64,000 nucleotides of DNA from Acidobacteriota bacterium (GCA_965248695.1 CBDFKD010000002.1:2656001-2720000); one strand, 5' to 3'; shown: positions 9,243 through 34,094, numbered from the stretch's first letter. Numbers and translations are program-made. The notes: generated by a model from the sequence alone, not told the origin.

Positions 9243-9689
9243 ATGAGCGAAAGTGAAGTCAAGCCGCAGGTCGTGAGAGAAGGCGACGTGAAGATGGTTG
9301 GGCCCGGCCATGACGCCAGCCATTACATCTCCGTTCCCATCAAGCAATTCTTCCGGCTGAAGAACGTGGGCAACGTCGGTGTCTGTCACATGGAACCGGG
9401 TGATGAGACGTGCGTATTCGCAATCGAGGAAGACGACGATGGGACGGCACCGCACCACTATGGCGCCTGCGACGAGTTCTACTACATCCTGTATGGCGAG
9501 TTTACGGTTTGGTGGGGAAAAGACGCCGCCAATCTGGACCAGTCCTACGCGCTCGAAGAAGGCGACTGCGCGTATTATCCGACGGGCTGGAAGTACAAAG
9601 TGAAGAACACCGGGAGCTCACCCGGCAAGTTCTTCTACTACATGTCATCGCCGCGCAGCGGGATTCAGCGGCTCGACAAGGTGACCTAG
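9243..9689 (+). CDS. Cupin-domain protein
   Basis: MEPGDE..HHY..DEFYYILYGE..LEEGDCAYYPTG..VKNTG; GAGGAG Shine-Dalgarno upstream. Confidence 0.85.
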   Translation: MSESEVKPQVVREGDVKMVGPGHDASHYISVPIKQFFRLKNVGNVGVCHMEPGDETCVFAIEEDDDGTAPHHYGACDEFYYILYGEFTVWWGKDAANLDQSYALEEGDCAYYPTGWKYKVKNTGSSPGKFFYYMSSPRSGIQRLDKVT

Positions 9690-9736
9690 TGGCCGGTAAC
9701 ACTTCCACCACGGCCTGCTCGAGAGTGAGTTAGAGG

Positions 9737-16742: not shown

Positions 16743-19466
16743 TTACTCCGACCGCATCGCCACCAGCGGATCGACCCTCGTTGCGCGCCGTGCCGGCAGG
16801 TAGCTGGCCAACAATCCCGTCGCCGTCAGGATGACAACGATGCCGCCGAACACGACCGGATCGGCCGGCTGCACCTGGAACAAGACGAACGACAGGAGTC
16901 GCCCCAGCCCCACCGCCAGCACCAGTCCCAGGACCGTCCCCACCGCCAGCTGCTGCATTCCCTGCCGCATCACCAGCCGCAGCACGTCGCCGGGGGCAGC
17001 ACCGAGGGCGACACGCAGCCCGACCTCGTGGGTGCGCTGGCTGACCGAGAACGCCAGCACGCCGTAGAGGCCGACGGTCGCGAGGAACAAAGCCGCGGCA
17101 CCGAAGACGGTGAACATGGTGCCGAAGATACGCAGGAACTGCTGCGTGTTTTCGACGGCCGCAGTGAGTGTTGAAACACCGGAAACCGGCAGGTCGGCGT
17201 CGACGGAAGTGACGGCTCTGCGGACGCCATCCGCCAGCTCTAGCGGGTCGCCGCTGGACCGCACAATCAGGCTCGCGGCCGACGACGGCCGTTGAGCGAA
17301 CGGCGTATAGATCGCTTCGTCGTTGAGGATGAAGATCTGCGCGTCGAGGTATAGGTCGGGCACGACGCCGACGATCGTGTACCAGATGTCATCGTTCCGC
17401 TCCGTCTGACCCGATGTGCGCACCCCACGTATCGCCACCCGCCGCCCGACAACCGACGAGGTTGTTGAATGGGTAGCAACGAACGCTTGATTCACGATGG
17501 CCACCGGCATCCCATCGGCATTGTCGGCCAGTGTGAACGCCCGGCCTTCCAGAATCGGGGCCTTCAGACTGGTGAAGTAGTCTGGATCGATAGCGCCTAT
17601 GCGGGCGCTGGGGTAGTCACGATCCGCCTGATAGGTCTGTCCCTCCACCGCATAGCGTCCGTTGTCGGCGCCGACGACGGGGAGATCCGTGCCAATCGAT
17701 GCAGTGGTGGCACCGGGGAGCGCACGCAATCTGATGCCGAGCTCGTCGAAGAACTGGCGTTGGCTTATGCCATCGGGGTAGTCGGCCGGCGGTAGTGCCA
17801 CCTGCGCCGTGAGCAGCCCGTCGACCTCGAATGCGTAGTCGACGTTGGCCAGATTAGTGACGCTGCGCACCATCAGTCCGGCAGCTACGAGCAAGGCGCA
17901 CGAGAAGGCGACCTCCACTACAACCAGGGTGCGGCTGAGCTTGCCAATGCGGAGACTCGAACCGCCGCGTGAGACGTCTTTGAGAACGTCGCTCATGTCG
18001 GTGCCCGACGCCTGCGCGGCGGGCAAGAGCCCGGAAAGGAGACTGGCTGCGAGCGTCAGACCGAACAAGAACAACAGCACGTCGGGGTCGATGCCGATGT
18101 CGACCCAGAACGGCGGCCCGCCAGGGAGTGCCGCGAGCGTCTGGTTGAACCAATCGATTCCGAGCTTGGCCAGCCCAATGCCGACAGCCGCCCCGAGGCT
18201 GGCGATCATCGCCGCCTCGATCAGCAGCTGGCCGAACAACCGCGCCCGACTGGCGCCGAGTGCGCTGCAAACCGCGACCTCCTTGCTGCGCAAGCTGGCG
18301 CGCGCCAGCAACAGGTTGGCGACGTTGGCGCAGGCGATTACGAGCACCAGCGACACAGCTCCGAGCATGGTGAACAGAAACGGTGTGAGCTGATAGCCGA
18401 TGATCTCGCGCACGAACAGGCCCATGATCATCGTCATGCCCTCGTTCGTGTCAGGGTGCTCCTCGCCGAGACGACGCATGATGCGATCGACGTCGCCTTG
18501 CGCCTGCGCCATCGTGACGCCGTCCGCCAGGCGGCCGACCATGGACATGTTCGGACCTTCACTGCGTCGGAGCGCGTCGATATCGACCTGCAACGGTAGC
18601 CACAGCTGCTGGTTGAACGGGAACTCGAAGCCCTCGGGCATCACCCCGATCACCGTCATCGGGGCACCGTTCACCCGCAACGTGCTGCCAACGGCAGCGC
18701 GTTCACCACCCAGGCGGTCCTGCCAGAACCGATACCCCACCACCACCACCGGCGGTCCACCGGCGGCTTCGTCGGCAGCCGTGAAAGTGCGGCCGCGAGC
18801 GGGTGTCACGCGCAGCAGCGGGAACATGTTGGCGGTTACCGATGCGGCAGTGAGAAACTCCGGCTCCTGTCCCGGCGGGCTCACGTTGGCGGGGACGATC
18901 TCCATGCCGGCGAGGGCTTCGAAGGTCGTCTGGCTCTCGACCAGATCGCGATAGTCATGGATGTGACCGATCAGGCGACTGGGCCCCTCGAGCAAGTTCA
19001 CCCGATTGAGCGCCACGAGCTCGTGCGGCTCGTCGAACGGCAGGCCCTTGAGCAGGACGCCGTTGACGATGCTGAACATCGCCGTGGTCAGACCGATTCC
19101 CAGCCCTACAGCCAGGACCGCAATGGCGGCGAGCCCAGGTTTGTGCACCAGTCGGCGGAAGGCGGTTCTCAGATCGGCGAACAGGTTGCTCATCACAGGA
19201 GTTTCCTCGGACTGGGAGGGAATTCGTTGTCGCGTGTATGGCCCATACGTCAGCCAGGCACGGGGTAACGCAAACGCCGAATCACGTAGCAACTCCGCCG
19301 CGAGCCGGCCGGGGCGACGGCCAGCGCGGTACAGCTCGTCGCGACGGGCCGTCATTGCCTCGAGCACGTCCTCGCCGTACCGGCGTCGGAAGCGACGCGG
19401 GTACAGCGCCAGCAGGAGGCGGAGAAGGAGCGGTGGCCGCGTCGCGGCATCAGGCTGCCGGGGCAC
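16743..19466 (-). CDS. Duplicated MacB/FtsX-type ABC permease (ADOP family)
   Basis: LGIGLTTAMFSIVNGVLL, IACANVANLLLARA, RTHEVGLRVALGA, PARRATRVDPLVAMR. Confidence 0.93.
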   Translation of the reverse strand: MPRQPDAATRPPLLLRLLLALYPRRFRRRYGEDVLEAMTARRDELYRAGRRPGRLAAELLRDSAFALPRAWLTYGPYTRQRIPSQSEETPVMSNLFADLRTAFRRLVHKPGLAAIAVLAVGLGIGLTTAMFSIVNGVLLKGLPFDEPHELVALNRVNLLEGPSRLIGHIHDYRDLVESQTTFEALAGMEIVPANVSPPGQEPEFLTAASVTANMFPLLRVTPARGRTFTAADEAAGGPPVVVVGYRFWQDRLGGERAAVGSTLRVNGAPMTVIGVMPEGFEFPFNQQLWLPLQVDIDALRRSEGPNMSMVGRLADGVTMAQAQGDVDRIMRRLGEEHPDTNEGMTMIMGLFVREIIGYQLTPFLFTMLGAVSLVLVIACANVANLLLARASLRSKEVAVCSALGASRARLFGQLLIEAAMIASLGAAVGIGLAKLGIDWFNQTLAALPGGPPFWVDIGIDPDVLLFLFGLTLAASLLSGLLPAAQASGTDMSDVLKDVSRGGSSLRIGKLSRTLVVVEVAFSCALLVAAGLMVRSVTNLANVDYAFEVDGLLTAQVALPPADYPDGISQRQFFDELGIRLRALPGATTASIGTDLPVVGADNGRYAVEGQTYQADRDYPSARIGAIDPDYFTSLKAPILEGRAFTLADNADGMPVAIVNQAFVATHSTTSSVVGRRVAIRGVRTSGQTERNDDIWYTIVGVVPDLYLDAQIFILNDEAIYTPFAQRPSSAASLIVRSSGDPLELADGVRRAVTSVDADLPVSGVSTLTAAVENTQQFLRIFGTMFTVFGAAALFLATVGLYGVLAFSVSQRTHEVGLRVALGAAPGDVLRLVMRQGMQQLAVGTVLGLVLAVGLGRLLSFVLFQVQPADPVVFGGIVVILTATGLLASYLPARRATRVDPLVAMRSE

Positions 19467-19804
19467 TACAGAACCCGCTTGGCCCGGGCGAAGCTCAGGA
19501 CCTTGGACAGGGTCTCGGCCTCACGCTCGAGCGTCGAGCGGCCGAGATCGGTGAGTCGGTAGTAGCGCCGGCGGCCATGCGCACCGTCGTCGGGACCGCT
19601 CGACTCCTCGATCAGCCCGGAGTCGGCAAGCCGACCCAGCGACCAGTAGAGCGATCCGGGGCCGAGATCGATGCTGCCGTCGGAGCGCTCGGCAACTTCC
19701 TTGGCCATGGAATAGCCATGCCGCTCGCCGTCCACCAGGGTCAACAGCAGGAAGAAGAACGCCGGGGTGATGCGGATCGATGGATCGGAGCCGGTGGAAG
19801 GCAT
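19466..19804 (-). CDS. PadR family transcriptional regulator
   Basis: HGYSM, GPGSLYWSLGRL, RRRYYRLTDLG; its stop overlaps the permease start. Confidence 0.93.
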   Translation of the reverse strand: MPSTGSDPSIRITPAFFFLLLTLVDGERHGYSMAKEVAERSDGSIDLGPGSLYWSLGRLADSGLIEESSGPDDGAHGRRRYYRLTDLGRSTLEREAETLSKVLSFARAKRVL

Positions 19805-20088: not shown

Positions 20089-20562
20089 ATGGGAGACGTC
20101 GTCTATCGATCGGAGATCGCGCTGACGCGCAACCGCGGTCCGCTGCGCACGGCAACCATGCCCGGAGGTGAGTCGGTGGACTTCGGCGTGCACGGGGCCA
20201 TCGCGGCGCACTATGGCGTCTCGATGGATGACTTCGACCCCGTGAGCACGACGCTCGATTACATCGTTGCCGCCGCCGCCGGCTGAATGACCGGTACCTT
20301 CGGCGGTGCGCTGGAGAAGCGAGGCATAGCGGCAAGTGACGGGAAGCTGCGATCGACCACTGTCGGCGAGATCGAGTCAGAGGGCGGCACCCTGGTGATT
20401 CGTAGAATCCACGTCGGGTATCACCTCGCCGTCGAGGCGGATGCGGATCGCACCGTCGTTGATCGCGTGCTCGACGTCCACGCCGGCGCCTGCCCGGTGT
20501 ATCGCAGCCTGCACCCGCAGATCGAGATCACGGCGTCGCTCGAGCTCGACCCCGCGGGCTGA
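20089..20562 (+). CDS. OsmC-family peroxiredoxin-like protein, probable selenoprotein (in-frame TGA 20284-20286)
   Basis: Two adjacent in-frame ORFs join as DYIVAAAAG-[TGA]-MTGTF..HAGACPVYRSL. The TGA occupies the first catalytic Cys position of OsmC and the second Cys (CPV) is retained. Confidence 0.82.
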
Positions 20563-20577
20563 GTCGCGCCGCGGTCT

Positions 20578-21561
20578 TCAGAGCCAGTCCGCCTGGCGGT
20601 ACCACTCGGCGGTGTCAGCGAACCCGCGGGCGGCATCGATGCGCGCCACGTGCCCGATGGCGCGAGCAATCTTGGTAGCGTCGCAGACCAGTCCCGGAGC
20701 GCTGAGCTCGCAGAGGCGATCTCGGTTCAGCAGCGCTGGCCGGCCGGTGACGCGACCGCTGAATTCGCCGATCTCGGCGATCGCCCAGAGCAGCCACCGG
20801 GGCACGGGGAGCGTGCGCACGCGTCGTTTGTACGTCTCGGAGAGCAAGCGGGCAAAATCGAGTTGCCGGACGGGGTCGGCGTGGCCGACGAAGAACGTTT
20901 CGCCGATCACTGCATCGACGCCGGCAAGCCCGGTGTCGCCCACCGCCCGCAGCCCGGCCACCAGATCAGCTACGTGGATGAACGTGTAGGCGGTCTCGGG
21001 ATCGCCGAGCAGCGGACAGAAACCGCGCTTGCCGCCGCGGAAAAGCGCCAGAAAGTCGCGGTCGCGAGGCCCATAGACTCCTGGCGGGCGAACGATCGAG
21101 TACCTAAGCCCCTCGATCTCCATCACCGCCTTTTCGCCGGCCAGCTTGCTCTTTCCGTACAGGCTCAAGGGCGCCGGCTCGTCGTTTTCCGTGCGTGGTC
21201 GCTGCGGCGTGCCGGCGCCCGCCGCCGCCTGGCTCGATACAAGCAGAAAGAACGCACCGCCACGCTGCGCCGCCAGTGCCGCCTGCCGCGCACCCTCGAC
21301 GTTGACCCGGGTGAACGCTTCGTGGTCGGGGGCGCGGGTCAACCCTGCCAGGTGATAGACGATCGCTGCGTCCTCGCAGGCGGACCCCATATCGTCGGCC
21401 TCGAGCTCGCACTCGACGCGTTGAACGCCGTCCGGCAGGGGGTTGGAGCTCGAGGCGCGCACAACGGCTCGCACTCCCCAGTCGGAGTCGCGCAGGCTCT
21501 CGCACAGATTCCAGCCGATGAACCCGGTGCCACCGGTGACAACGGCAATTCTGGCAGTCAT
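20578..21561 (-). CDS. NAD-dependent epimerase/dehydratase (extended SDR), candidate ceramide/3-keto reductase
   Basis: Start reassigned to ATG 21561; TGGTGFIG, HLAG, YGKSK, RPPGVYGP. Reductase role inferred from operon context. Confidence 0.85.
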   Translation of the reverse strand: MTARIAVVTGGTGFIGWNLCESLRDSDWGVRAVVRASSSNPLPDGVQRVECELEADDMGSACEDAAIVYHLAGLTRAPDHEAFTRVNVEGARQAALAAQRGGAFFLLVSSQAAAGAGTPQRPRTENDEPAPLSLYGKSKLAGEKAVMEIEGLRYSIVRPPGVYGPRDRDFLALFRGGKRGFCPLLGDPETAYTFIHVADLVAGLRAVGDTGLAGVDAVIGETFFVGHADPVRQLDFARLLSETYKRRVRTLPVPRWLLWAIAEIGEFSGRVTGRPALLNRDRLCELSAPGLVCDATKIARAIGHVARIDAARGFADTAEWYRQADWL

Positions 21562-21568
21562 CGTGGCT

Positions 21569-22708
21569 CTACAGCGGCTTTTGGTAGATCCGGTAGGTCT
21601 TGGAGCGCTCGCAGCCGACAAGCTGTATCGCCTTGTTGATGCCGTCGTTGTCTTCCAGCGTCCAGCCGCACTCGCCGCCGCGCCAGCCGAGTCCTTCGAC
21701 GACGCGAATCGAGTGCGCAATCAGAAGCAACTCGAGGCCTTTCTGGCGATGTTCGGCCACTACTCCCAGCAGCATGAGGCGGCATTGGTCGATGATGCTT
21801 TTCTTGCGCAGCAGGTGCAAGAAACCGAACGGCAGCAGGCGCCCGCGCATGCGCTTGAACACCTGGTTGAAGTCGGGAACGGTGAGGCAAAACGCGATCG
21901 GCTTGCCCTCGATCTCCATGATGAGCGCCAGGTCGAAGTTGAGGATCATCTTCATGTCCTTGGCGGTGTGCAGGAACTCCTCCTCGGTCGGCGGCACGAA
22001 GCCCCAGTTGTTCGCCCACGCCTCGGAGAAGATGCGCAAGATTGTCAGCGCGTCCTGCTCGAAGTTCTTCTTGCTCAGCTGGCGGATCGTCGGCCGCGGA
22101 ACCAGCCGCGCTTCGATGCGCTTCAAGATGCGCTCGGAGCGCCGATTGACGCTGGTGTCGATCTCGAACCACCAGGTCCATAGATCCTTCGCCTTGCTAT
22201 AGCCGGCCGACTCCACCCACCCGGGATAGGTCGGTGGGTTGTAGGGTGTCTGAATCAACGGATCGCGATCGAACCGCTCTACGAGCAAGCCCGCCGGATG
22301 GTTGAGCGATGGGTTTGCCGGGCCTCTCAAGGCGTCGCGGCCGCGGCCTGTCGCCCAGCGCTCCGCTGCCTCCAGCAACTTCGCGGCCACCTCGCCGTCC
22401 TCGGCTTCCAGGAAGCCGAAGAACGCCACGTTGTCGCCGTGGATCTCGTTGTGCCGTTCGTCGTCGATGGCGGCAATTCGGCCCACGGCCTCGCCGTCGC
22501 GCAGCGCCAGGTAGAGCTCCATCTCGGCATGACGAAAGAACGGGTTCTTGGCGGTGTTCAGCAGATCCCGTTCGGCGAGGATCAGCGGCGGCACCCAGTG
22601 CGGATCGCCGGCATACAGCCGGAACGGCAGCTTGATGAACGCGTCGCGCTCGCGCTTGGTCGCCACCCGACGGATCGCCACCGCCGGTGAGCCCGTGGCC
22701 TCCGTCAT
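21569..22708 (-). CDS. GNAT-fold acyltransferase, putative bacterial ceramide synthase (bCerS-like)
   Basis: FIKLPFRLY..PHWVPPL, GRIAAI, FGFLE, PYNPPTY, WANNWGFVP, WTLEDN; lies directly downstream of the SPT gene. Confidence 0.72.
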   Translation of the reverse strand: MTEATGSPAVAIRRVATKRERDAFIKLPFRLYAGDPHWVPPLILAERDLLNTAKNPFFRHAEMELYLALRDGEAVGRIAAIDDERHNEIHGDNVAFFGFLEAEDGEVAAKLLEAAERWATGRGRDALRGPANPSLNHPAGLLVERFDRDPLIQTPYNPPTYPGWVESAGYSKAKDLWTWWFEIDTSVNRRSERILKRIEARLVPRPTIRQLSKKNFEQDALTILRIFSEAWANNWGFVPPTEEEFLHTAKDMKMILNFDLALIMEIEGKPIAFCLTVPDFNQVFKRMRGRLLPFGFLHLLRKKSIIDQCRLMLLGVVAEHRQKGLELLLIAHSIRVVEGLGWRGGECGWTLEDNDGINKAIQLVGCERSKTYRIYQKPL

Positions 22709-22732
22709 ACGTGTGTAGCGCCTCCGCGGACC

Positions 22733-23965
22733 TTACGCGGCACTGGTGATCACGCCGCGACGACGGCCGGCATCGGCGAATGCGCTCAGCACCGTTTCGA
22801 TCTCCTCGCGTGTATGGCTGGCGTTGACCGCCATGCGGATGAGTGCCTCACCCTCGGGGACCGCTGGCGGCAGCGCCGGCAGGGCGAAGATGCCCGCGTC
22901 CCAGACGTCCTTCCACACCACCATGGCCAAATCGGCGTCGCCGATTGACACCGGCACGATCGGACCCTCCGAGCCGAGCGTGTTGAACCCCAGCCCGCGC
23001 AAACCCTTGCGGAACATCACCACGCGCTTCCACAGCCGCTCTCGATGCTCAGGCTCGCTGGCCAGGATCTCGAGCGCCTTGTGGGTGGTCGCCACCTGGG
23101 CCGGCGGCAACGCGGCGGTGAACACGAACGGGCGCGCCAGACACTTGATGTAGTCGACGATCTCGGCGTTGCCGCCGACGAACCCGCCGACCGATGCGAA
23201 CGCCTTGGAAAACGTACCGATCACCAGGTCGACCTCGTCCTCGAGGCCGAAGTGATCCGGTGTGCCGCGGCCGTTGGGACCGAGAACACCGGTGGAGTGG
23301 GCGTCGTCCACCAGCACTCGCGCGCCGTACCGTCGCGCCAGCTCGACGATCCCCGGCAAATCGGCGATCTCACCGCTCATCGAGAAGACGCCGTCGGTGA
23401 CGATCATCTTGCCCGCGTTGCGTCCGGCGTCGCGCTTCAGCAACGACTCGAGGTGATCCATGTCGCCGTGGCGGTACTTGCGCAGCTGGCCGTACGACAG
23501 CCGCGCCCCGTCATAAAGACTGGCGTGGTTCTCGCGGTCGAAGTACATGATGTCGCGACGACCAACGACAGCGGCCAGCACCCCGAGCGAGCCGAGGAAG
23601 CCGGTGCTGAACGTCAACGCCGCCTCGCGCTTCAGAAAATCCGCCAGGTCTCGCTCGAAGGCCTCGTGGATTCCCAGCGTGCCGTTCAGGAAACGTGAGC
23701 CGGTGCAGCTTGTTCCGAACTCACGCAGCGCCGGCAGGCCGGCGTTCTGTACGCGCTCGTCCTGGCTCAGGCCGAGGTAGTCGTTGGAGCAAGCCATGAC
23801 CATACGGTTGCCATCGACGGTGACCTCGTTGCCTTTCTGCGCTCGAAGCGCCTTGAAGTACGGAAAGAGCCCGATGTCGCGCAGCTCGTTGGCGCGCTGG
23901 TAGTACTTGGAGTCCGACTTGTCGAAGATATCCACCTTCATGGTGGGGATTTCGGCTTGTGCCAT
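22733..23965 (-). CDS. spt: Serine palmitoyltransferase (alpha-oxoamine synthase family)
   Basis: SNDYLGL, GTSCTGSRFLNGTLGIH, NHASLYDG, DGVFSMSG, DDAH, PLP-lysine motif GTFSKAFASVGG. The GSRFLNGT and GTFSK motifs favour SPT over BioF/Kbl. Confidence 0.8.
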   Translation of the reverse strand: MAQAEIPTMKVDIFDKSDSKYYQRANELRDIGLFPYFKALRAQKGNEVTVDGNRMVMACSNDYLGLSQDERVQNAGLPALREFGTSCTGSRFLNGTLGIHEAFERDLADFLKREAALTFSTGFLGSLGVLAAVVGRRDIMYFDRENHASLYDGARLSYGQLRKYRHGDMDHLESLLKRDAGRNAGKMIVTDGVFSMSGEIADLPGIVELARRYGARVLVDDAHSTGVLGPNGRGTPDHFGLEDEVDLVIGTFSKAFASVGGFVGGNAEIVDYIKCLARPFVFTAALPPAQVATTHKALEILASEPEHRERLWKRVVMFRKGLRGLGFNTLGSEGPIVPVSIGDADLAMVVWKDVWDAGIFALPALPPAVPEGEALIRMAVNASHTREEIETVLSAFADAGRRRGVITSAA

Positions 23966-24081
23966 TTCGGTTCGCTCGCTCGAGGAGAGCGGCGGTAGCC
24001 CGGCACAGCACACACTTCGTGCCGGGCACACCCGTCAGACCCTGGCCTGTTTGACGACGTCTGAGAGCCGCGGAGGCGGAA

Positions 24082-24696
24082 TCAGGAGTCCGTGCGGTAC
24101 TCGTCGATCCGGTCCTGCAGCCGCTGAATGACGTCGTCTACGGTTTCGGTCTTCAGCAGGCGGATAAAGCGGCGGTTCCAACTACGAGCCGTGTCCACGT
24201 CGTCAACGACGTAATTGACGATCAGCCACCGATCCTCGCGTAGCGTGAGCTCGTAGTCGAGGGCAATGTCATCGCCCTCGAAGTAGGCCAGGGTATTGAC
24301 CACCGCTTGCTCGCCGTCGATCTCCTCGTTCAGGTAGTCGAAGCGGTCCGCTCGATAGCGGCCCACCCCCTTTATGGAACGAATGCGTAGCAAATCACCG
24401 AAGACGGCCTTCCACTCACCGCACTTCTCACCGTCGAGCTCGTTGTCCACACAGATCGGATCAATCGCGCCAGTCGACATCGATTCGAAGTCGGTGACGC
24501 CATTCATGACCTCGTAGACACGAGCCTCCCCCGCAGCATCGAGGGGGTCATGCTCGGCGAGAATGGCGGAAATCGCCTCGTTGGACGTACGGACGGTCTC
24601 CATCGGGGTGGTGATTCTTGCCGCGGCCTGGCCAACCGCTATCACGCCCAGAAGGAGCACCGACGCCACGAGACTAGTCGAGGACGACTTGGCCAT
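24082..24696 (-). CDS. MlaC/Ttg2D (HpnM-like) periplasmic lipid-binding protein
   Basis: Signal peptide, TDFESMS, LDYELT..WLIVNYVVDDV..F..L pattern; overlaps the TolC 3' end. Confidence 0.8.
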   Translation of the reverse strand: MAKSSSTSLVASVLLLGVIAVGQAAARITTPMETVRTSNEAISAILAEHDPLDAAGEARVYEVMNGVTDFESMSTGAIDPICVDNELDGEKCGEWKAVFGDLLRIRSIKGVGRYRADRFDYLNEEIDGEQAVVNTLAYFEGDDIALDYELTLREDRWLIVNYVVDDVDTARSWNRRFIRLLKTETVDDVIQRLQDRIDEYRTDS

Positions 24697-26098
24697 CAGC
24701 AATCCACTGTAGGTATGAAGAAAGGTCTCCGATAACAAAGGCCAACTCGGCCAAGGAGACCATCAACTCATATTCTCTCTTAACGACCTCGTGCTGTAAA
24801 CGATAGTCGGCGCGGTAGGCCTTGATGAGCGGCTGTGCTTCGCCGATTCCGAGGTCGAAATCATCGCCGGCAGAACGTAGCCAGCGGCGCGTCTCGCGGC
24901 GCGTCTGGCGCGCCGAGGCCAGCAACTCGACGTTCTTGAGCACCCCCTCGAGGGCGCCCACTACCTCGATCTCGACGCTCATCTGCAACGCTAACCTGCG
25001 CGCGTCGGTGGCGTCGCGCTCGATCCGGCGCCTGGCGATATCGAGGTTGTGGCGCGCGAAGTTGAGGTCCCAGCGCATGTTCACCGCGGCGCCGGCACGG
25101 GTGAAATTGAACTCGTCGTAGGCGAACGGGTTCTTCTGGTCGTCGCGCGCCGCGGAGCGCGCAAAGCCGAAGCCACCGCCGATCAGGATCAGCGGCCAGC
25201 GGTTGCTGCGGCTGAGATCCATGGCCTCGTCGAGCGCACCGCTGGCCGCCGCCAGGGCGCGGAGCTGAGGATTGCGCTCGGCGGCGTCTGCCTGCAGAGC
25301 CCGAAGGTCGGCGCGGGTCAGTGCCACCTCAGGCATTCTATCGGCGCGCAGCTCGTAGGCGCTGGAGCTATCGAACCCCATCAGCTTGGCGAGCGCCTCG
25401 AGCAACAAGCGGTGCTTCTGGCGCGTTTCGAGGTAGACCGCGTCCACGTCGTAGCGGCCCGAGCGGATCTCCCAAGCGTCGTTGGGATCGATGTCCCCTT
25501 CATCGAGCTTCTGGTCCGCCTGCTCGATGAGCTCGTCGAAGGCGTCGCGCATGCCCTCGGCGATATCGAACGCGCGGCCCGCCGACAAGGCCCCCCAGTA
25601 GGTGCGTATGACCTCGCGAGACAGCTCGTCGCGGGCACGTTGCTGCTCGGATTCCTTGACGTCGACCACTCCGCGCGCCGCCGCGGTGCCATGGCGTAGC
25701 CGCCCGAATCCGTACACCGGGATGGCAAATCCGATCTGGCCCTTGAAGAACGGGCCCAGATCGTTCAGGTCGCTGGACGTATCGGGGGAGTTGAAGATGT
25801 CACCCCGGGCGCCGGGAACGACACCTGTGTAGCTGTCCAGCTGCACCTCGGGTAACGACCAGAAGCTCTGCCACTGCTTCAGATCGACCTCGGCCCGATC
25901 GACGTCGAGTCGGTGGGCCCGCATCAGCGGGTTCGAGTCGACCGCACGCGCCAGGACGGCGGCTAGCCCGAGACGCGGCGGTGTTCCGGCGGCCGGTTGC
26001 AGCTCCTGGGCGCTGGTGCTCGTGGCCGCCAGCAGCGCGGTCACGGCAACCAGGCTCGCGATGGCGGGTAGCTGGCGCCCGCTCGACTCGGCGCGCAT
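24674..26098 (-). CDS. TolC family outer-membrane factor
   Basis: Signal peptide and two OEP-like repeats (AVDSNP..; AAERNPQL..RWPLI), helical coiled segments. Confidence 0.85.
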   Translation of the reverse strand: MRAESSGRQLPAIASLVAVTALLAATSTSAQELQPAAGTPPRLGLAAVLARAVDSNPLMRAHRLDVDRAEVDLKQWQSFWSLPEVQLDSYTGVVPGARGDIFNSPDTSSDLNDLGPFFKGQIGFAIPVYGFGRLRHGTAAARGVVDVKESEQQRARDELSREVIRTYWGALSAGRAFDIAEGMRDAFDELIEQADQKLDEGDIDPNDAWEIRSGRYDVDAVYLETRQKHRLLLEALAKLMGFDSSSAYELRADRMPEVALTRADLRALQADAAERNPQLRALAAASGALDEAMDLSRSNRWPLILIGGGFGFARSAARDDQKNPFAYDEFNFTRAGAAVNMRWDLNFARHNLDIARRRIERDATDARRLALQMSVEIEVVGALEGVLKNVELLASARQTRRETRRWLRSAGDDFDLGIGEAQPLIKAYRADYRLQHEVVKREYELMVSLAELAFVIGDLSSYLQWIADGQVVLD

Positions 26099-26380
26099 GG
26101 CGTCTCCTGCGGATATGGCTCAGGGGGAGCAATAGGTGTCGGGGGCGGCGACACTAAGCCTAGCATCGCGCCGTCGCCTCGCGGCGCTCGACGCCTAGGC
26201 ACCGCAAGCGCAGGAAAAGCACTCGGGCTTGACGCGTAGGAGCCCTTCCTAGAGCCTTGAGAGGGTGAGCTGCGTGGTCCCAGCGCGACCGACTCCCGTC
26301 ACGACCGCTAGTGGGCTTGGCCTGTCTGCAACCCGCGCCGCCGGTTGGTCGTGCGACCTGCCCGCCCAAGTAATCGGACC

Positions 26381-28813
26381 GTGAGCGACAAGCACCAAAT
26401 CCCGGCTCGTACTGTCCGCGAGCGCACGCTCTTTTACCGTGAGATCCGCGCCGTCTGCCGCTGGTCTCATCGCTACGCGTTTCTCTGGGTGGCGCTGACC
26501 CTGGCGGTCACGGTCCCGGCGTTCATGCGCGCGCAAACGCTCGGTCTCGACTCCGACCTCACCCGGTTGCTTCCGCAGGACAGCCCAGCGGTGCAGTGGA
26601 GTCGAGACCTGGAGCCGCTGGTAGGTGACGGGGGGTATTTCAGCCTGGTCTTCGAGCGGGGTGATCCCCAATCGTTACAGCAAGCGGTTGACGGCACAGC
26701 CAGGCGATTGCAGGGCCTCGACGGGATCACCGATGTCAACTACCGCTACCCGACGGATTTCGTCCAGCGGTACCGCTACGGCCTGATGCCCTCGGACCAG
26801 CTCGAGACCGCCATCGAAACGATCGAGGACTGGGAGGCCGAGGTAAACCCGTTCCTCGACGATCTCGACGATTCGGCGAGCGAGGAGGAGTCCGACCTCG
26901 AGCGCATCGTGGGGCTGTACAGCGAGCTGCCCGAGTACCACCGCGACGCTGACGACACGATGTACGGGATGATCCTCAAGACAAGCGAGGGCCTGACCGA
27001 CCTCTCTGGCCTGCGGGAGCTGTACCTGGAGATCGACCGCGTTGCCGGCGAGGAGTCAGACGCGGCCGGCGTGACGGTGTCCATCGGCGGCTCGCTGCGC
27101 ACGCGGGTGGAAGAGTTCGACGTCATCGTCTCGGATGTTACCCGCACAGGTGCGGTGGCAGCGGCGGCCATCCTGTTGACGCTGGCGATCAGCTTCAGGT
27201 CGGTTCGCGTGCTGCCGGTGCTGCTGTACCCAATCGGCGCCGGCCTGACTTGGGCGTTTGCGCTAGTGCCCGATCTGGTCGGCGACCTGAACACGATCAC
27301 CTCATTCCTGCTGATGGTGTTATTCGGTATGGGGGTCGATTACTCCATTCACCTGGTGAAGCGCTTCCGGCACGAGATCCTGACCAATCCTCCGGACGTC
27401 GCGCTGGCCGAAACGTTCACATCGACCGGACGTTCGGTGATGACATCGGGGCTGACAACCTCGTTCGGACTCTTCATCCTGGCGGTATCCGACTTTCGCG
27501 GCTTCTCGGACTTCGGACTCATCGGCGGCACCGCCATCCTGGTGGTGACGGCGTGCATGCTGCTCGTGATGCCGGCCACGCTGAGCGCCGGCTACCGCCT
27601 CGGCCTGGTTACGCCGAGCGCGCCGCGCTACCCGAGCGCGCGACTTGCGATTCCACCGAGTTGGTCGGCAGCTCTGCTGAGCACGCTGGTGATCATCTCG
27701 GCGTACGCCGCTGCGTTCCTGCTCGAGTTCGACTACGACTTCGCGAACTTCAGCGCCAACCTCGAGGAACTGGACGCCATCCGCGCCAAGCAGGATGAGG
27801 TTTACCCGATCTTTTTCGGTCCGTCGGCCATCTATGTGGCGCGCGACCTCGAGGCGCTCGACCAGATGCTGGCGCTAATCTCCGCCGCCAGGGCAGAGCC
27901 CGAATCGGTGATCGGGCGGGTGGCCAGCGTGCGCGATTTCGCGCCCGACGACCACGAAGTGCAACTGCGACGCGACGCCATCGACCAGATCCAGGAGATG
28001 CTCCGGCGCAGGTGGGTCAACCGCATCGAGGACCCGGAGCGGGTCCGTATCATCGAGGACGTGCGCGACTTCGATATGCCGGACACCTTACCGGCCGTCG
28101 ACGATCTGCCGATTTCGGTGCTGCAGGACATGATCACGCGCGACGGATCTGGCGCCTACATCCTCGGGCTCCACGCTACCGGCCCCGGCAAGGACGGCGT
28201 GACGACCATGATGTTCGCGCGCGAGCTCTACGACCTGGAGCTCCCGGACGGGATCCTCGGACCAACGGGCGACAAACCGGTGCTTGCCGAGATTCTCTGG
28301 CTGGTCACCCGGGAAGGGCCGCTGCTCGTCGTTTTGACGTTCCTAGGCGTGTTCATTCTGGTGGTCATCGACCGGCGCGACGTGAACCAGGCAGCCTGGG
28401 TGCTCGTCCCTCTCGTGGCGAGCCTGTTGCTGACGTTCGGAGCGGTGATCGCACTCGGATGGCGCGTGAACTTCTTCAACATGGTGGTACTGCCCACCCT
28501 GCTCGGTCTCGGCGTCGACCATGGGGTGCACTACTACCGGCGCTGGCGCGAGTTGGAGGGGGATACGGCCGCCACTCAGCTGGAGCTGTTTGAGCCCATC
28601 ACCGTGGCCACCTTGACCACCATAATGGGGTACGCTGGGATGGCGTTCGCGCATCATCCCGGGCTGCGCTCGATCGGACTGCTGGCGGTGGTCGGCCTGC
28701 TGTGCACCTGGCTGACGGCGATGGTGTTGCTTCCCGGTCTGCTGGTCTGGCATCGCGACCTCAGCGAGGACGATCCGGAGCTTCCAGACACCGACGACGC
28801 GCTAGACGTGTAG
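26381..28813 (+). CDS. MMPL/RND family lipid transporter (HpnN-like)
   Basis: Two MMPL halves with GMGVDYSIH and GLGVDHGVH, LDSDLTRLLP, TTIMGYAGM..HPGLRSIG; GTG start 26381. Confidence 0.9.
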   Translation: MSDKHQIPARTVRERTLFYREIRAVCRWSHRYAFLWVALTLAVTVPAFMRAQTLGLDSDLTRLLPQDSPAVQWSRDLEPLVGDGGYFSLVFERGDPQSLQQAVDGTARRLQGLDGITDVNYRYPTDFVQRYRYGLMPSDQLETAIETIEDWEAEVNPFLDDLDDSASEEESDLERIVGLYSELPEYHRDADDTMYGMILKTSEGLTDLSGLRELYLEIDRVAGEESDAAGVTVSIGGSLRTRVEEFDVIVSDVTRTGAVAAAAILLTLAISFRSVRVLPVLLYPIGAGLTWAFALVPDLVGDLNTITSFLLMVLFGMGVDYSIHLVKRFRHEILTNPPDVALAETFTSTGRSVMTSGLTTSFGLFILAVSDFRGFSDFGLIGGTAILVVTACMLLVMPATLSAGYRLGLVTPSAPRYPSARLAIPPSWSAALLSTLVIISAYAAAFLLEFDYDFANFSANLEELDAIRAKQDEVYPIFFGPSAIYVARDLEALDQMLALISAARAEPESVIGRVASVRDFAPDDHEVQLRRDAIDQIQEMLRRRWVNRIEDPERVRIIEDVRDFDMPDTLPAVDDLPISVLQDMITRDGSGAYILGLHATGPGKDGVTTMMFARELYDLELPDGILGPTGDKPVLAEILWLVTREGPLLVVLTFLGVFILVVIDRRDVNQAAWVLVPLVASLLLTFGAVIALGWRVNFFNMVVLPTLLGLGVDHGVHYYRRWRELEGDTAATQLELFEPITVATLTTIMGYAGMAFAHHPGLRSIGLLAVVGLLCTWLTAMVLLPGLLVWHRDLSEDDPELPDTDDALDV

Positions 28814-28854
28814 CAGGCCGTGGGGGCCCGCCACACTTCCACCACGGCCTGCTA
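28811..28854. repeat. REP/MITE-like palindrome at the MMPL stop codon
   Basis: 13-bp perfect inverted repeat TAGCAGGCCGTGG / CCACGGCCTGCTA. 21 bp of it (ACACTTCCACCACGGCCTGCT) recurs at 9699-9719. Confidence 0.7.
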
Positions 28855-28891
28855 GAGCAGGCTCGAGCACCGCGAAATGCCGGATGCGCGA

Positions 28892-28920
28892 TTGCGAGCG
28901 GTACCTCCGCCGCTTACCAT
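28892..28920 (+). promoter_or_regulatory. Putative sigma70 promoter for tRNA-Gln
   Basis: TTGCGA-N17-TACCAT ending 12 nt before the tRNA. Confidence 0.55.
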
Positions 28921-28932
28921 CACCGTCCAGGT

Positions 28933-29007
28933 TGGGGCGTCGTCCAATTGGCAAGACATGCGGCTCTGGACCGTAGAATCGGGGTTCGAGTCCCTGCGCC
29001 CCAACCA
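28933..29007 (+). tRNA. tRNA-Gln(CTG)
   Basis: Acceptor stem TGGGGCG/CGCCCCA, anticodon arm TGCGG-CTCTGGA-CCGTA, GGTTCGAGTCC T-arm, encoded CCA. Confidence 0.96.
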
Positions 29008-29156
29008 TTCAGCCGCAGTCGACGCCGGCCAACCGAGTAGCGTGCCGGGGCCGCACGGGCGCGCGTAACCGTATCCTCATCGGGAGCCCGAGCCACCCGA
29101 GATTCGCCCGCCGAGCTCGCGACGGGCTCTGCGCCCCCTCCCAGGTGGAGTACGAC

Positions 29157-32138
29157 ATGATTCGAAGCCGCTGGCAGCCACGACTCGCGATCCTCACCCT
29201 GATCGTCGCCGCCACGGCGCCGGTGGTGGCACAGGACGAGCAGGCGCTAGACGCCGCCTACACCGACGAGATTCACACCCATACGACAGATGCGAAGTTC
29301 CTCACGCCGATCGTCGAGATGCTGCCTGCCTCGAGCACCGTCCCCACACCGCTCGACTTCCACGGCTATATCGCCGGCGCCGAGGGGCACCTGACCTACG
29401 CCGCCGATGTGCACGCTTACATGCGGGCAGTTGCCGACGCCGCACCTCGGGTGCAGGTCTTCTCCATGGGTCAGACCGAGGAAGGCCGCGAGCGCCTTCT
29501 GGTGGTCGCCGGCAGCGACGCGTCGATGGCCAACCTCGACCGCTACCGCGAGATCACCGCGCGCCTTGCGGACCCTCGCGATCTGACCGACGAGGAGGCC
29601 GCCGAGCTCATCGGCCGCGGCAAGGCGATCTACTGGGCAACCGGCGGATTGCACTCGCCGGAAACCGGCTCACCGGAGATGCTCATGGAGCTCATCTACC
29701 GTTTCGCGGCCGATGAGCGACCGATCTTCAACGAGATCCGCGACAACCTGATCTTCATGGCCACCCCGGTGGTCGAGGTGGACGGGCGCGAGCGCATCAT
29801 CGACATCATGCGCTATCGCGCCGCCAACCCCGGAGCGGCGGCGCCGAACCTAGTGTACTGGGGCAAGTACATCGCCCATGACAACAACCGCGACGGCATC
29901 GGGCTGGCGCTCACGCTCTCTAGGCAGTCGATCGACACGTACCTGCAATGGCACCCGCAGGTCATGCACGACCTTCACGAGTCGGTGCCGTTCCTGTACA
30001 TCATGAGCGGCCACGGCCCGTTCAACTCCTGGCTCGACCCGATCACCACCGAGGAGTGGGTGGAGATGGCGTGGAACGAGGTGCGGCAGATGAACGAGTG
30101 GAACGTACCCGGTGTGTGGACGTTCAACTTCTTCGACGGTTGGGCCGCCAACTACATGATCTACGCCGCCATGGGCCGTAACTCGGTGGGTCGCTTCTAC
30201 GAGACCTTCGGCAACAGCGCGCCGGAGACCCAGATGCGCGAGATCGGCAACCAGTCGCAGCGCGCCTGGTACCGCATGAACCCACCCACGCCGAAGGTGC
30301 TGTGGTCGCTGCGCAACAACACCAACCTGATGCAGAGCGCGCTGGTCGTCGGGCTGCACAACGTGGCGACCAACAAGGATCGCTTCCTCGAGACGTTCTA
30401 CCGGAAGGGCAGGCGCGCGGTCGACAAGCCACGTCTCGAAGGCCCCGCTGCGTGGGTCATCCCCTCCGACGGGCCGCGGCCGCTATTGACGCGGCGGCTG
30501 ATCAACCTCCTGCGGGCGCAGACCATCGAGCTTCACGTTGCCACGGAGACGTTCGAGGTCGAGGCATCGCGGCGGCCCGAGGAGAGCGCAGCCACGGAGT
30601 TTTACGCCGGCGACGTGATCGTACGCATGGACCAGCCGTACAGCCGACTGGCGGACATGCTGCTCGACTATCAGTACTACAACCCCAGCGACCCACGTCC
30701 GTACGACGACACCGGCTGGTCGCTCGGACCGCTGTTCAACGTCGATACCTACCGGGTGAAAGATCTGGCCGTGCTCGATGTCGGTATGGCCGCGCTGAAT
30801 GCTACAGGCGCCAGTGGCAGCGTCACCGGCACTGGGTCCACCCTCGTGCTTGCAGCCACCGGCGAGCCCGAGGTCGCGACCTTCCGCTTCCGTCTGGCAG
30901 ACGTGCCGATGCGCTCTGCCGAAGCCGAGCTCACCGTCGACGAGACCACCTTTGCCGCCGGCAGCGTGCTGATCGATGCCAGCGATACCTCGATCCGCCA
31001 GCGGGTAACCGATGTGGCCATCGAGCTAGGGCTGAGCCTCACCGCAATCTCGTCGTCGCCGGACGCGCCCACCCACGACATGCCCCTGCCGCGCATCGCC
31101 CTGGCCCACACCTGGATCAACACCCAGAGCGAGGGCTGGTGGAGATACGCGCTCGACGACGCAAGCGTGCCGTACGACTACATCTCGACGGACACCATCG
31201 GCGAAGTCGACGACCTGCGAGAGCGCTGGGACGTTGTCATCATTGCGCCCGGGTGGGGCAACGTCAGCCGCATCGTGCAGGGTGCTCGCAGCAATCAGCC
31301 GATCCCTTGGCAGACCACCGATCTCACCCCCAACCTCGGGCACATCGACTCCACCGACGACATGACGGCCGGCATCGGCTTCGAGGGTGTGGCCAAGATC
31401 CAACGCTTCGTCGAGGAGGGCGGCGTGTTGATCGCCGCCACCAACTCGATCGGCTTCCTGACACAGACCGGCATCGCTCCCTACGTGCGGGTGGATTCGA
31501 CGCCCTCCGACATGCAGGCACGTGGCGCCTTGTTCAATGCCGAGATCACCGACGCGCTCAGCCCCATCGCCTACGGTTACGACGAGGACACGGCGGTGTA
31601 CTTCAGCAACGCCCCGTTGTTGCGCGTCGACGCTGCCCCTCCGTCCCGCGGATTCGGCGGTGGCGGCGACAGTGGGCGCGCCTCGGGCCGCCGCGGCGAC
31701 GATGTGGTTCCCGGGCACCCGCCCTACGTCGACCCGGATGCCGAAACGGACGACCCGACGGACGGCGAAACAGCGGACGGCGAAACGGCGGACGGCGAAA
31801 CAGCGGATGACGCCGAGGATGACCCCCCCTATTTCGACGACGGACAGGATCTCGACGATCGCACCCGGCTGCTGGCCGGACATCTGGTTCCCTCAGCGGA
31901 CCGGGTCCCCCGCGTGGTGATGCGCTTCCACGACAGCAGCAGCGAGTTATTGCTCTCCGGCATGCTCGGCAACGGTCGTGCCCTGGCGTCGCGACCGGCG
32001 ATCATCGACGTCCCCGTTGGCGACGGTCACGCCGTCCTGTTCGCCATCAACCCGATGTGGCGCAACCAGACGCACGGCCAATACGGGCTCGTGCTGAACA
32101 CGCTGCTACACTTCAAGGCTCTCGACGCCGGCAGATAA
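29157..32138 (+). CDS. M14 family zinc carboxypeptidase-like protein, secreted
   Basis: Signal peptide; LHSPE (HxxE), HDNNRD, HDLHES; C-terminal GATase-like domain. Confidence 0.9.
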   Translation: MIRSRWQPRLAILTLIVAATAPVVAQDEQALDAAYTDEIHTHTTDAKFLTPIVEMLPASSTVPTPLDFHGYIAGAEGHLTYAADVHAYMRAVADAAPRVQVFSMGQTEEGRERLLVVAGSDASMANLDRYREITARLADPRDLTDEEAAELIGRGKAIYWATGGLHSPETGSPEMLMELIYRFAADERPIFNEIRDNLIFMATPVVEVDGRERIIDIMRYRAANPGAAAPNLVYWGKYIAHDNNRDGIGLALTLSRQSIDTYLQWHPQVMHDLHESVPFLYIMSGHGPFNSWLDPITTEEWVEMAWNEVRQMNEWNVPGVWTFNFFDGWAANYMIYAAMGRNSVGRFYETFGNSAPETQMREIGNQSQRAWYRMNPPTPKVLWSLRNNTNLMQSALVVGLHNVATNKDRFLETFYRKGRRAVDKPRLEGPAAWVIPSDGPRPLLTRRLINLLRAQTIELHVATETFEVEASRRPEESAATEFYAGDVIVRMDQPYSRLADMLLDYQYYNPSDPRPYDDTGWSLGPLFNVDTYRVKDLAVLDVGMAALNATGASGSVTGTGSTLVLAATGEPEVATFRFRLADVPMRSAEAELTVDETTFAAGSVLIDASDTSIRQRVTDVAIELGLSLTAISSSPDAPTHDMPLPRIALAHTWINTQSEGWWRYALDDASVPYDYISTDTIGEVDDLRERWDVVIIAPGWGNVSRIVQGARSNQPIPWQTTDLTPNLGHIDSTDDMTAGIGFEGVAKIQRFVEEGGVLIAATNSIGFLTQTGIAPYVRVDSTPSDMQARGALFNAEITDALSPIAYGYDEDTAVYFSNAPLLRVDAAPPSRGFGGGGDSGRASGRRGDDVVPGHPPYVDPDAETDDPTDGETADGETADGETADDAEDDPPYFDDGQDLDDRTRLLAGHLVPSADRVPRVVMRFHDSSSELLLSGMLGNGRALASRPAIIDVPVGDGHAVLFAINPMWRNQTHGQYGLVLNTLLHFKALDAGR
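31761..31805 (+). repeat. 15-bp in-frame tandem repeat, three copies (DGETA)
   Basis: GACGGCGAAAC(A/G)GCG three times in an acidic linker of the M14 gene. Confidence 0.9.
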
Positions 32139-34090: not shown

Positions 34091-34094
34091 GGAG

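Follow-up and report, generated by a model that had tools for sequence, protein, structure and literature searches.

The window analysed here, a 64,000-nucleotide stretch of DNA from an Acidobacteriota bacterium (GCA_965248695.1, CBDFKD010000002.1:2656001-2720000), contains six adjoining genes with a bearing on lipid synthesis and transport. Read 5′ to 3′ on the minus strand, five of them encode a TolC-like outer-membrane factor of 474 aa (24674–26098; PF02321 OEP, E 5e-33, two repeats), an MlaC-like periplasmic lipid-binding protein of 204 aa (24082–24696; PF05494, 47.6 bits with a cut-off of 26), an Spt-like alpha-oxoamine synthase (AOS) of 410 aa (22733–23965; PF00155, E 6e-58), a bCerS-like tandem-GNAT N-acyltransferase of 379 aa (21569–22708; called from full-length YghO homology and its modelled fold) and a CerR-like extended SDR of 327 aa (20578–21561; PF01370, E 2e-27). 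The tolC-like and mlaC-like genes overlap by 23 nt, and the gaps that follow measure 116 nt (to the Spt-like gene), 24 nt (to the GNAT gene) and 7 nt (to the SDR gene). On the plus strand, and divergent from the tolC-like gene, lies the gene for an MMPL/RND-superfamily inner-membrane transporter of 810 aa (26381–28813; PF03176, E 3e-30). The gene boundaries leave 282 bp between the two (26099–26380), in which a promoter consensus scan, uninformative for this phylum, returned no promoter-like site. All six genes and their orientations are as the original prediction had described them. It had also remarked on the absence of a periplasmic adaptor gene; indeed, a Pfam scan of 40 of the 43 non-overlapping window ORFs of at least 90 aa (all except those at 1–470, 14178–14720 and 61845–62162) found no HlyD/MFP adaptor, and no MlaD/E/F or LptF/G either.

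The six genes occur in unchanged order in all five of the nearest acidobacterial loci (L001–L005), down to a GNAT identity of 57%, while the outer flanks of these loci differ. The arrangement thus exceeds what chance would produce. The locus possibly extends further: Pfam recognizes genes for a secreted DUF547 protein (plus strand) and a GT2 glycosyltransferase (minus strand) at 32503–34114, and L004 and L005 have the two in synteny on their MMPL side (66–74% identity), with a partial DUF547 gene at the locus edge in L003.

The Pfam GNAT match of the 379-aa protein is weak (E 0.006). Its residues 10–379 align with residues 8–380 of E. coli YghO at 33% identity (E 2e-71), and YghO obtains 396 bits from the GNAT profile. 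The AF2 model of the protein (pLDDT 81.9) has tandem GNATs as its best PDB folds, with E values of about 1e-12. On this homology the protein is a member of the YghO/aca (bCerS) family, which bears out, at the level of the family, the GNAT-fold ceramide synthase foreseen in the original prediction. Stankeviciute 2022 is said to have proposed a GNAT-type fold for bCerS. The Caulobacter gene CC_1154 is one that we take to be CCNA_01212. It is listed together with yghO/ECD_02850 as the N-acyltransferase among the dihydroceramide genes in the available text of PMC9386255, where ECD_02852 and CC_1164 appear as the reductase. By homology, our SDR likewise belongs in one family with BL21 'epi', the CerR homologue of E. 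coli (29% identity over 302 aa, E 3e-29); the profile of the locus SDRs gives epi 236 bits versus 64 bits for RfaD, and the NAD-binding GGTGFIG motif and the YGKSK (YxxxK) motif are both seen in the alignment with epi. The reductase of ceramide synthesis that had been anticipated is thereby sustained as a family assignment, and the enzyme is a putative 3-keto reductase leading to dihydroceramide. It has no N-terminal hydrophobic segment, and the alignment of the Rossmann motif starts at residue 7 of the E. coli protein; the Caulobacter CerR is described as periplasmic in the accessible part of PMC11087976.

The AOS aligns with E. coli Spt, Kbl and BioF through its NHAS, DDAHS and FSKA motifs, which cover the PLP-lysine and the His/Asp motifs. 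Pairwise scores against these three enzymes are close (276, 250 and 191 bits, respectively), and the profile of the Spt-like set gives E. coli Kbl a higher score (475 bits) than E. coli Spt (430 bits), as might be expected if the AOS were an ordinary BioF or Kbl in a cluster unrelated to sphingolipids. The phylogeny argues otherwise. In a 67-row tree obtained by quick search, the window enzyme, 54 other GNAT-linked rows and E. coli Spt, the latter on a long branch (3.09), form a single 56-row clade (SH-aLRT 99) apart from the four Kbl, four BioF and two ALAS references, and a separate Kbl clade (support 100) holds the second AOS of L006. Moreover, no tdh or bio genes adjoin the AOS (Pfam, window ORFs), and in 53 of 80 related loci the AOS is linked to a bCerS-family GNAT. 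A BioF or Kbl identity is therefore disfavoured to the point of being scarcely credible; as judged from the tree, the enzyme does not group with either, and the earlier assignment is supported as far as an Spt-like enzyme.

Which amino acid this enzyme uses is a separate matter. Its best NCBIfam model is NF047600 Spt (CFB), at 434 bits and hence below the cut-off of 640; it also stays below NF047599 (380 versus 500) and NF047603 (311 versus 670), so that no curated Spt equivalog is reached. The GNAT-linked AOS of Corallococcus attains only 514 bits on NF047600. A non-serine substrate, for example alanine, glycine or cysteate, would fit these low scores of the window AOS and its relatives, and the lipid made and exported would then be a ceramide-like N-acyl amino lipid instead of a true sphingolipid. 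Related AOS enzymes start sulfonolipid synthesis according to the available portion of PMC9304779, and that of PMC11334938 mentions '(1-deoxy)Cer' and 'Spt-like' proteins. Nevertheless, NF047600 is the top NCBIfam model in 10 out of 10 GNAT-linked AOS tested as well as for the window enzyme, and the clade of the latter includes Myxococcaceae and Bacteriovoracaceae enzymes. Myxococcus xanthus and Bacteriovorax stolpii are presumably members of these two families. Both species are among the bacteria whose SPTs form one subgroup in the accessible text of PMC9386255, and we regard a substrate other than serine as distinctly unlikely.

The 810-aa form of the MMPL protein matches the database copy P0192. 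PF03176 matches it in two stretches with 105.9 bits (gathering score 20.5), and its hydrophobic segments cluster around two large loops. The closest PDB sequence matches are HpnN structures, 6wu0 (98 bits) and 5khn (94 bits). The protein falls short of the HpnN models TIGR03480 (215 bits, cut-off 752) and NF052374 (143 bits, cut-off 1100) and of the BstA equivalog NF045600 (121 bits, cut-off 1400), and a tree that has no resolved sister grouping of the window and Corallococcus MMPLs sets it apart from the HpnN-like clade (support 100). Its subfamily comprises 104 proteins with at least 35% identity, after which identity drops to 26% or less, and the relatives at 35–51% bear names from other phyla. 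The MlaC-like protein begins with a hydrophobic segment (residues 8–26) typical of a signal peptide, and two of its cysteines, C82 and C92, do not vary across 37 sequences. For its AF2 model (pLDDT 86.6), each of the 12 best PDB matches in Foldseek is an MlaC/Ttg2D protein (E 1.5e-9 to 1e-3), by which modelling confirms the MlaC fold of the carrier; the HpnM model TIGR03481 gives 31 bits versus a cut-off of 160. This subfamily is small, with 71 word-index matches and 18 representatives whose E value is no higher than 1e-30. In the TolC-like protein a signal peptide is likewise suggested (residues 10–28), no lipobox Cys is found within the first 45 residues, and TIGR01844 gives 49 bits, under its cut-off of 225. 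To speak of "hopanoid-type transport parts", as had been done from the sequence, was consequently too strong, since the MMPL and MlaC-like proteins lie far below the HpnN and HpnM cut-offs and the tree leaves the former outside the HpnN-like clade.

A predicted complex of the MMPL protein with MlaC(27–204) scored 0.45 (runs 0.45, 0.52 and 0.45) and the best of three controls 0.00; contacts agreed to at least 88% between runs, with a partner pLDDT of at least 80. In the calibration the mark was reached by 116 of 157 solved complexes and by 2 of 215 mismatched pairs, but at scores of 0.60 or below only 18 of the 157 solved complexes passed, as did both mismatches, so that most passes at such a score are false unless there was prior reason to think the pairing likely. 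The prediction thus lends weak support to an MMPL–MlaC pairing.

We surveyed 80 related GNAT loci, 14 from Acidobacteriota, 5 from Myxococcota (Myxococcaceae) and 61 from elsewhere. Of these, 55 contain Spt, which lies no more than 500 bp from the GNAT gene in 53 and shares a single ORF with it in L062; the remaining 25 loci, some of them truncated, have no Spt within reach. An SDR occurs in 45 loci and accompanies Spt in 44. The set of MMPL, MlaC and TolC genes lies beside spt and GNAT in nine loci (5/14 Acidobacteriota and 4/5 Myxococcaceae). The acidobacterial five (L001–L005) keep the order of the window, and in all six acidobacterial copies the tolC-like and mlaC-like genes form a tightly packed unit with spt. 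The Myxococcaceae loci L045, L067 and L070 read MMPL(−) / Spt(+) GNAT(+) / MlaC(−) TolC(−), and L071 ends at the GNAT gene. Five families (MMPL, TolC-like, MlaC-like, Spt-like and GNAT) therefore recur in two phyla, the transport proteins of the window and of Corallococcus being only 23–26% identical; no periplasmic adaptor is seen among the 13 ORFs scanned in Corallococcus L070. A further 13 GNAT matches are tied to MlaC and/or MMPL matches by an exactly equal longest-contig size, some of these contigs measuring 3.9–11 kb. Nine of the 14 Acidobacteriota loci and one of the 5 Myxococcota loci lack the set, as do all 61 from other phyla; the sole exceptions are weak MMPL matches 9–10 kb away in L018 and L019. 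The set must therefore be regarded as lineage-restricted and not as a general companion of spt. The proposal that dihydroceramide is made here and delivered to the outer membrane accordingly fares unevenly: its synthetic half agrees with the three enzyme families, found together in 44 of 80 loci, while the expected association of spt with mmpL, mlaC and tolC recurs in two lineages only.

All three enzyme families of the Caulobacter and E. coli ceramide pathway (Spt, bCerS and CerR) are adjacent and co-directional in the window. However, the Spt is of the CFB/delta type and not of the alpha- or beta-proteobacterial type, and the cluster lacks the dedicated ACP and acyl-ACP synthetase genes of E. 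coli BL21. In Caulobacter, LptF2/LptG2 with LptB are the sphingolipid transporter according to the accessible text of a preprint (10.64898/2026.04.12.717747), and in E. coli BL21 lptG and lptF also adjoin spt. The window resembles these systems in having a transporter encoded inside the sphingolipid locus, but theirs is ATP-driven and of the ABC/Lpt type while ours is an RND-superfamily MMPL, with no LptF/G in the scanned ORFs. In the available part of the preprint the periplasmic and outer-membrane steps are not accounted for, whereas the operon described here holds candidate genes for both. An architectural parallel is BstABC, the sterol transport system of Methylococcus capsulatus (PMC11713862), where the biosynthetic operon of the lipid likewise includes genes for an inner-membrane protein of the MmpL family, a binding protein of the periplasm and a protein that faces the outer membrane. 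The resemblance goes no further than architecture, given the low NF045600 score, and BstB is PhnD-like and BstC a TatT/TPR lipoprotein, in contrast to the MlaC fold and TolC-like barrel of the window. Among relatives of solved structure HpnN comes closest to the MMPL, and there is a weak match of the MlaC-like protein to HpnM, but besides the differences given above no hopanoid genes occur among the scanned window ORFs. With the Mla system the window shares the fold of the carrier, whose neighbours are here an MMPL and a TolC-like protein, with no MlaFEDB or MlaA in the 40 of 43 ORFs scanned. Like a tripartite RND efflux pump, finally, the locus encodes an RND-superfamily pump together with an outer-membrane factor, but the pump is MMPL-type instead of HAE1 and the MFP/HlyD adaptor is absent from the ORFs scanned in both phyla.

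With a probability of roughly 55%, we consider that a ceramide-type lipid operon is joined to a three-part envelope transport set not just physically, but probably functionally too. The best reading of the locus is that of a dihydroceramide operon with a lineage-restricted, adaptor-less export set that would work like BstABC or HpnN; product, substrate, partners and direction of transport are what we infer from the genes present. In the cytoplasm, the Spt-like PLP enzyme would condense serine with an activated fatty acid to 3-ketosphinganine, the tandem GNAT would N-acylate this intermediate and the CerR-like SDR would reduce the 3-keto group to give dihydroceramide, in the order of the Caulobacter model as found in the accessible text of PMC11087976. 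The MMPL protein, as a presumed proton-driven transporter, would then take the lipid from the inner membrane and pass it to the secreted, probably disulfide-bonded MlaC-like carrier for delivery to the TolC-like protein. A soluble carrier would thus occupy the place of the periplasmic adaptor of a drug pump. More tentatively, and with the odds rather against it, one may envisage a second, Lpt-independent sphingolipid route in which the MMPL extracts ceramide, the MlaC-fold chaperone ferries it and the TolC-like protein acts as outer-membrane receptor or insertion site and not as a duct.

The enzymes might also make ceramide next to a transport set that merely adjoins the operon, handling another substrate or acting in a retrograde or housekeeping manner like Mla. 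The MlaC of the Mla system is widely discussed as a retrograde carrier, which counts against the export direction assumed here; all solved relatives of our carrier are phospholipid binders, the MMPL subfamily reaches into other phyla, and none of the 61 loci outside the two phyla has the set beside spt. We nonetheless think an unrelated substrate unlikely, if by no means negligible, since spt and GNAT have these three families at their sides in both phyla, in differing arrangements, the tolC-like and mlaC-like genes share a tightly packed transcription unit with spt in every acidobacterial copy, and the small MlaC-like subfamily shares contigs with GNAT. Outer-membrane factors ordinarily serve as exit ducts, and the scanned window ORFs include no outer-membrane insertase-like gene at the locus, so the lipid could instead be a signal or surfactant that leaves by the TolC-like channel or is packed into vesicles. 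Such a duct would have no adaptor to seal it, and known bacterial sphingolipids are outer-membrane lipids according to the available portion of PMC11087976, which makes secretion a poor prospect compared with incorporation into the outer membrane.

In 2024 no sphingolipid flippase or transporter had been identified according to the accessible part of PMC11087976, and the recent preprint, as far as available, expects other routes in Myxococci and Bacteroidetes. According to its Discussion, spt of M. xanthus has as its neighbour an MmpL gene that is co-regulated with the synthesis of sphingolipids, so that this adjacency, which we also see in Corallococcus and in a Myxococcaceae MAG, is already in print (10.64898/2026.04.12.717747). 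The available text names MmpL alone, with no mention of the MlaC and TolC genes across spt and GNAT or of the acidobacterial operon, and our literature searches found neither these partners nor an acidobacterial case in print; a search for Acidobacteria and serine palmitoyltransferase returned no paper besides a Black Sea survey. Predicted ceramide synthesis is hereby extended to one acidobacterial lineage. The acidobacterial locus and its rearranged Myxococcaceae counterpart name candidate genes for all three transport steps. M. xanthus is genetically tractable, and since it has MmpL beside spt and is a relative of the Corallococcus seen here, the question of sphingolipid transport can be tested directly. 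The two loci thus provide testable candidates for the route of sphingolipids to the cell surface, which is still unknown for many bacteria and which, if the more tentative Lpt-independent reading is true, would involve a new job for an outer-membrane factor and a soluble carrier instead of an adaptor.

Six genes lie within positions 20578–28813, five of them on the minus strand and one, encoding the MMPL protein, divergent from these. Read in the direction of transcription, the five begin with the gene for a TolC-like outer-membrane factor at 26098..24674, in which Pfam finds two OEP repeats (E 5e-33). Next come genes for an MlaC-like protein (24696..24082; 47.6 bits with PF05494, cut-off 26), an alpha-oxoamine synthase (AOS; 23965..22733), a 379-aa GNAT-like protein (22708..21569; marginal Pfam GNAT match, E 0.006) and an extended SDR (21561..20578). 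They are tightly packed, the TolC and MlaC genes overlapping by 23 nt and the following spacers measuring 116, 24 and 7 nt. The divergent spacer between the TolC-like and MMPL genes is 282 bp, with the MMPL start placed at 26381 because the database copy of the protein (P0192) has 810 aa. A promoter and terminator scan of 20200–29300 returned no more sites than shuffled sequences. The statement in the original prediction that no periplasmic adaptor gene is present held in a Pfam scan of 40 of the 43 non-overlapping window ORFs of at least 90 aa, which likewise contained no MlaD/E/F or LptF/G.

Pairwise comparison did not settle the nature of the AOS (276 bits to E. coli Spt, 250 to Kbl, 191 to BioF), and a tree was therefore built from 67 sequences. 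Besides the window protein and E. coli Spt, these were 55 of the 56 AOS ORFs in related loci, a short fragment having been left out, and references from annotated records (four each for BioF and Kbl, two for ALAS). The window protein, 54 other GNAT-linked sequences and E. coli Spt fall into one clade (SH-aLRT 99), although this was a quick search and E. coli Spt sits on a long branch (3.09). A separate Kbl clade (support 100) includes a second, unlinked AOS of locus L006. The original assignment to Spt, as against BioF or Kbl, thus held in the tree. However, when the E. coli proteins are scored with a profile made from the Spt-like set, Kbl (475 bits) comes out ahead of Spt (430), which speaks for the competing reading. 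The NCBIfam Spt model NF047600 is the best model for the window AOS (434 bits) and for 10 of 10 relatives tested (445–549), yet its cut-off of 640 is reached by none of these eleven proteins, while both controls pass their own cut-offs. For these reasons, together with the caveats of the tree, we term the AOS ‘Spt-like’ in the sense of PMC11334938, where such a clade is defined through co-location with bCerS and CerR.

The other two enzymes were compared with the sphingolipid locus of E. coli BL21(DE3), standing in for the Caulobacter proteins. ECD_02850 (yghO), ECD_02852 and ECD_02854 of this strain are described in PMC9386255 as homologues of CC_1154, the Caulobacter N-acyltransferase, CC_1164, the reductase, and spt, respectively. 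YghO matches the GNAT-like protein along the full length of the latter (33% identity, E 2e-71), which bears out the proposed kinship of the window protein with the known bCerS family; the AlphaFold model of the window protein (pLDDT 81.9) resembles tandem-GNAT enzymes in a fold search. The SDR is 29% identical to the E. coli reductase homologue (E 3e-29), with which it shares the motifs GxTGFIG and Y[GA]KSK; with a profile derived from SDRs at related loci, this homologue scores 236 bits and RfaD 64.

A single genome scan with a GNAT alignment gave 80 loci from about 20 phyla (numbered with the prefix L), and neighbouring genes were counted by profile searches of their ORFs. Spt is present in 55 of the 80, at most 500 bp from the GNAT gene in 53, SDR in 45, and both together in 44. 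The 25 loci lacking Spt include several that are truncated and others with long flanks, among them four from Bacillota and four from Spirochaetota. The MMPL, MlaC and TolC families are far rarer than Spt and SDR across these loci. As the survey was anchored on GNAT, it covers the transport genes as seen around GNAT loci. The co-occurrence of spt with mmpL, mlaC and tolC implied by the original prediction held in part of the loci of two groups and was not seen in the others. All three families occur in the order of the window in five Acidobacteriota loci (L001–L005; GNAT identity 57–83%), and all three are present in the Myxococcaceae loci L045, L067 and L070, while L071, cut at the GNAT gene, has MlaC and TolC. 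In L070, from Corallococcus coralloides, the genes run MMPL(−) / Spt(+) GNAT(+) / MlaC(−) TolC(−), and Pfam matches the three transport proteins clearly (MlaC 5e-35, OEP 9e-30, MMPL 3e-36). Nine of the 14 Acidobacteriota loci lack the set, as do one of five Myxococcota loci (L057) and every one of the 61 loci whose phylum is another or is not named; the sole exceptions are two weak MMPL matches 9–10 kb away. A further 13 GNAT matches are tied to MlaC-like and/or MMPL matches by identical ‘longest contig’ values, some of 3.9–11 kb; such equal values probably denote the same contigs and would indirectly support the linkage.

Among the related loci, those of Deinococcota and Rubrobacteria (L006–L028 and L093) hold the Spt enzymes closest to the acidobacterial one (clade support 100); they have Spt-GNAT-SDR trios but lack the transport set. 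In Rubrobacter radiotolerans (L093) the trio is borne on plasmid 1 (NZ_CP007515.1, 14230–19822), where an LTA-synthase/sulfatase-family gene comes after it. These findings hint at horizontal transfer and at ceramide-type lipids in the two groups. In L062, from an alphaproteobacterial MAG, one ORF (8366–11137) matches both the Spt and GNAT profiles and is a possible Spt-bCerS fusion. The Corallococcus Spt ORF (L070, 8297–9970) has about 130 extra C-terminal residues without a Pfam match, and in two Myxococcaceae MAGs a second, longer GNAT paralogue adjoins the first (L045, 5265–6683; L057, 11789–13408).

On the MMPL side of the window cluster, a secreted DUF547 protein and a small GT2 glycosyltransferase (32503–34114) are kept in L004 (603–2587) and L005 at 66–74% identity. 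In L004 a GDSL lipase gene separates MMPL from DUF547, and L003 has a partial DUF547 at its edge; the GT2 enzyme could decorate the lipid. On the other side, synteny is limited to the closest loci: an ADOP duplicated permease (TIGR03434, 803 bits) immediately preceded by a PadR regulator (both within 16743–19804, minus strand) is kept in L001 only, and a short OsmC-like ORF (20287–20562, plus strand) convergent with the SDR in L001 and L003. The permease, together with the nearest loci, assigns the window to Acidobacteriota. Farther off, the window encodes a PlpD-like patatin-type phospholipase fused to an Omp85 barrel (37883–40078, plus strand) and a single 2696-aa ORF (40133–48223, minus strand) with ETF-QO 4Fe-4S, acyl-CoA dehydrogenase middle and C-terminal, and ETF beta-/alpha-like domains, by its predicted domains an unusual all-in-one fatty-acid oxidation/electron-transfer fusion. 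Insertion-sequence genes (rve integrases, a Mutator-family transposase) occupy a stretch of lower G+C at 57343–61590.

The transport proteins do not fit any of the known systems considered. HpnN is the nearest solved relative of the MMPL protein in a PDB sequence search (98 bits), but in NCBIfam the MMPL protein falls well short of the cut-offs for HpnN and BstA, and a branch with support 100 parts the window MMPL from HpnN-like proteins; membership of HpnN, HpnM and BstA was rejected on the missed family cut-offs and, for HpnN-like proteins, on this tree as well. An Mla system, LptFG and a classical tripartite pump were rejected on the absence of MlaD/E/F, LptF/G and an adaptor from the scanned ORFs. 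PDB sequence searches with the MlaC-like and TolC-like proteins gave nothing useful, and a fold search was thus needed for the former: all 12 matches of its model (pLDDT 86.6) at E ≤0.001 are MlaC/Ttg2D lipid carriers. This protein has an N-terminus resembling a signal peptide and two invariant cysteines, and belongs to a small subfamily with 71 matches at 39% identity or more and 18 representatives at E 1e-30 or better out of 1.84 billion.

Between the window and Corallococcus, the transport proteins are 23–26% identical, compared with 51% for Spt and 44% for GNAT. In the MMPL tree the acidobacterial subfamily and the myxobacterial MMPLs meet four other proteins in a polytomy, so that sisterhood of the acidobacterial and myxobacterial pumps was not recovered. 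Either shared descent or separate recruitment of the transport genes would point to a functional link. Complex prediction with MMPL and the mature MlaC-like protein scored 0.45 (runs 0.45, 0.52 and 0.45; best of three controls 0.00), the runs agreeing in at least 88% of contacts with a partner pLDDT of at least 80. Among the calibration pairs, 116 of 157 solved complexes and 2 of 215 mismatches attained the mark, 18 of the former and both of the latter at ≤0.60; a pass that low is false more often than true unless the two proteins were likely partners beforehand, and the modelled complex weakly favours this pairing.

From the gene identities, family memberships and linkage we infer product, substrate, partners and direction as follows. 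Most likely, the Spt-like, bCerS-like and CerR-like enzymes would make dihydroceramide, acylation preceding reduction as in the Caulobacter model (PMC11087976), and the MMPL protein would then take the lipid out of the inner membrane, the MlaC-like carrier move it across the periplasm and the TolC-like protein accept it at the outer membrane. The closest known architecture is BstABC, in which a sterol operon encodes an MmpL protein together with a periplasmic binder and a protein facing the outer membrane (PMC11713862), although the component parts differ. The only experimentally supported sphingolipid transporter that we found is LptF2G2 with LptB in Caulobacter (preprint 10.64898/2026.04.12.717747). 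In E. coli BL21(DE3) (L082, NC_012971.2, 2989282–2997066), yghO, an acyl-AMP ligase, an epimerase-family reductase, ACP and spt are followed by lptG and lptF paralogues, which fits this Lpt-type transport. The same preprint proposes that sphingolipid transport differs among taxa and already notes in its Discussion an MmpL gene adjoining spt in M. xanthus; the available text does not mention MlaC or TolC genes or Acidobacteriota. Our literature searches returned no other paper linking spt with MMPL, MlaC or TolC, and the MlaC and TolC partners and the acidobacterial case were not found there. The main interest of the locus is that it makes the question of sphingolipid transport testable.
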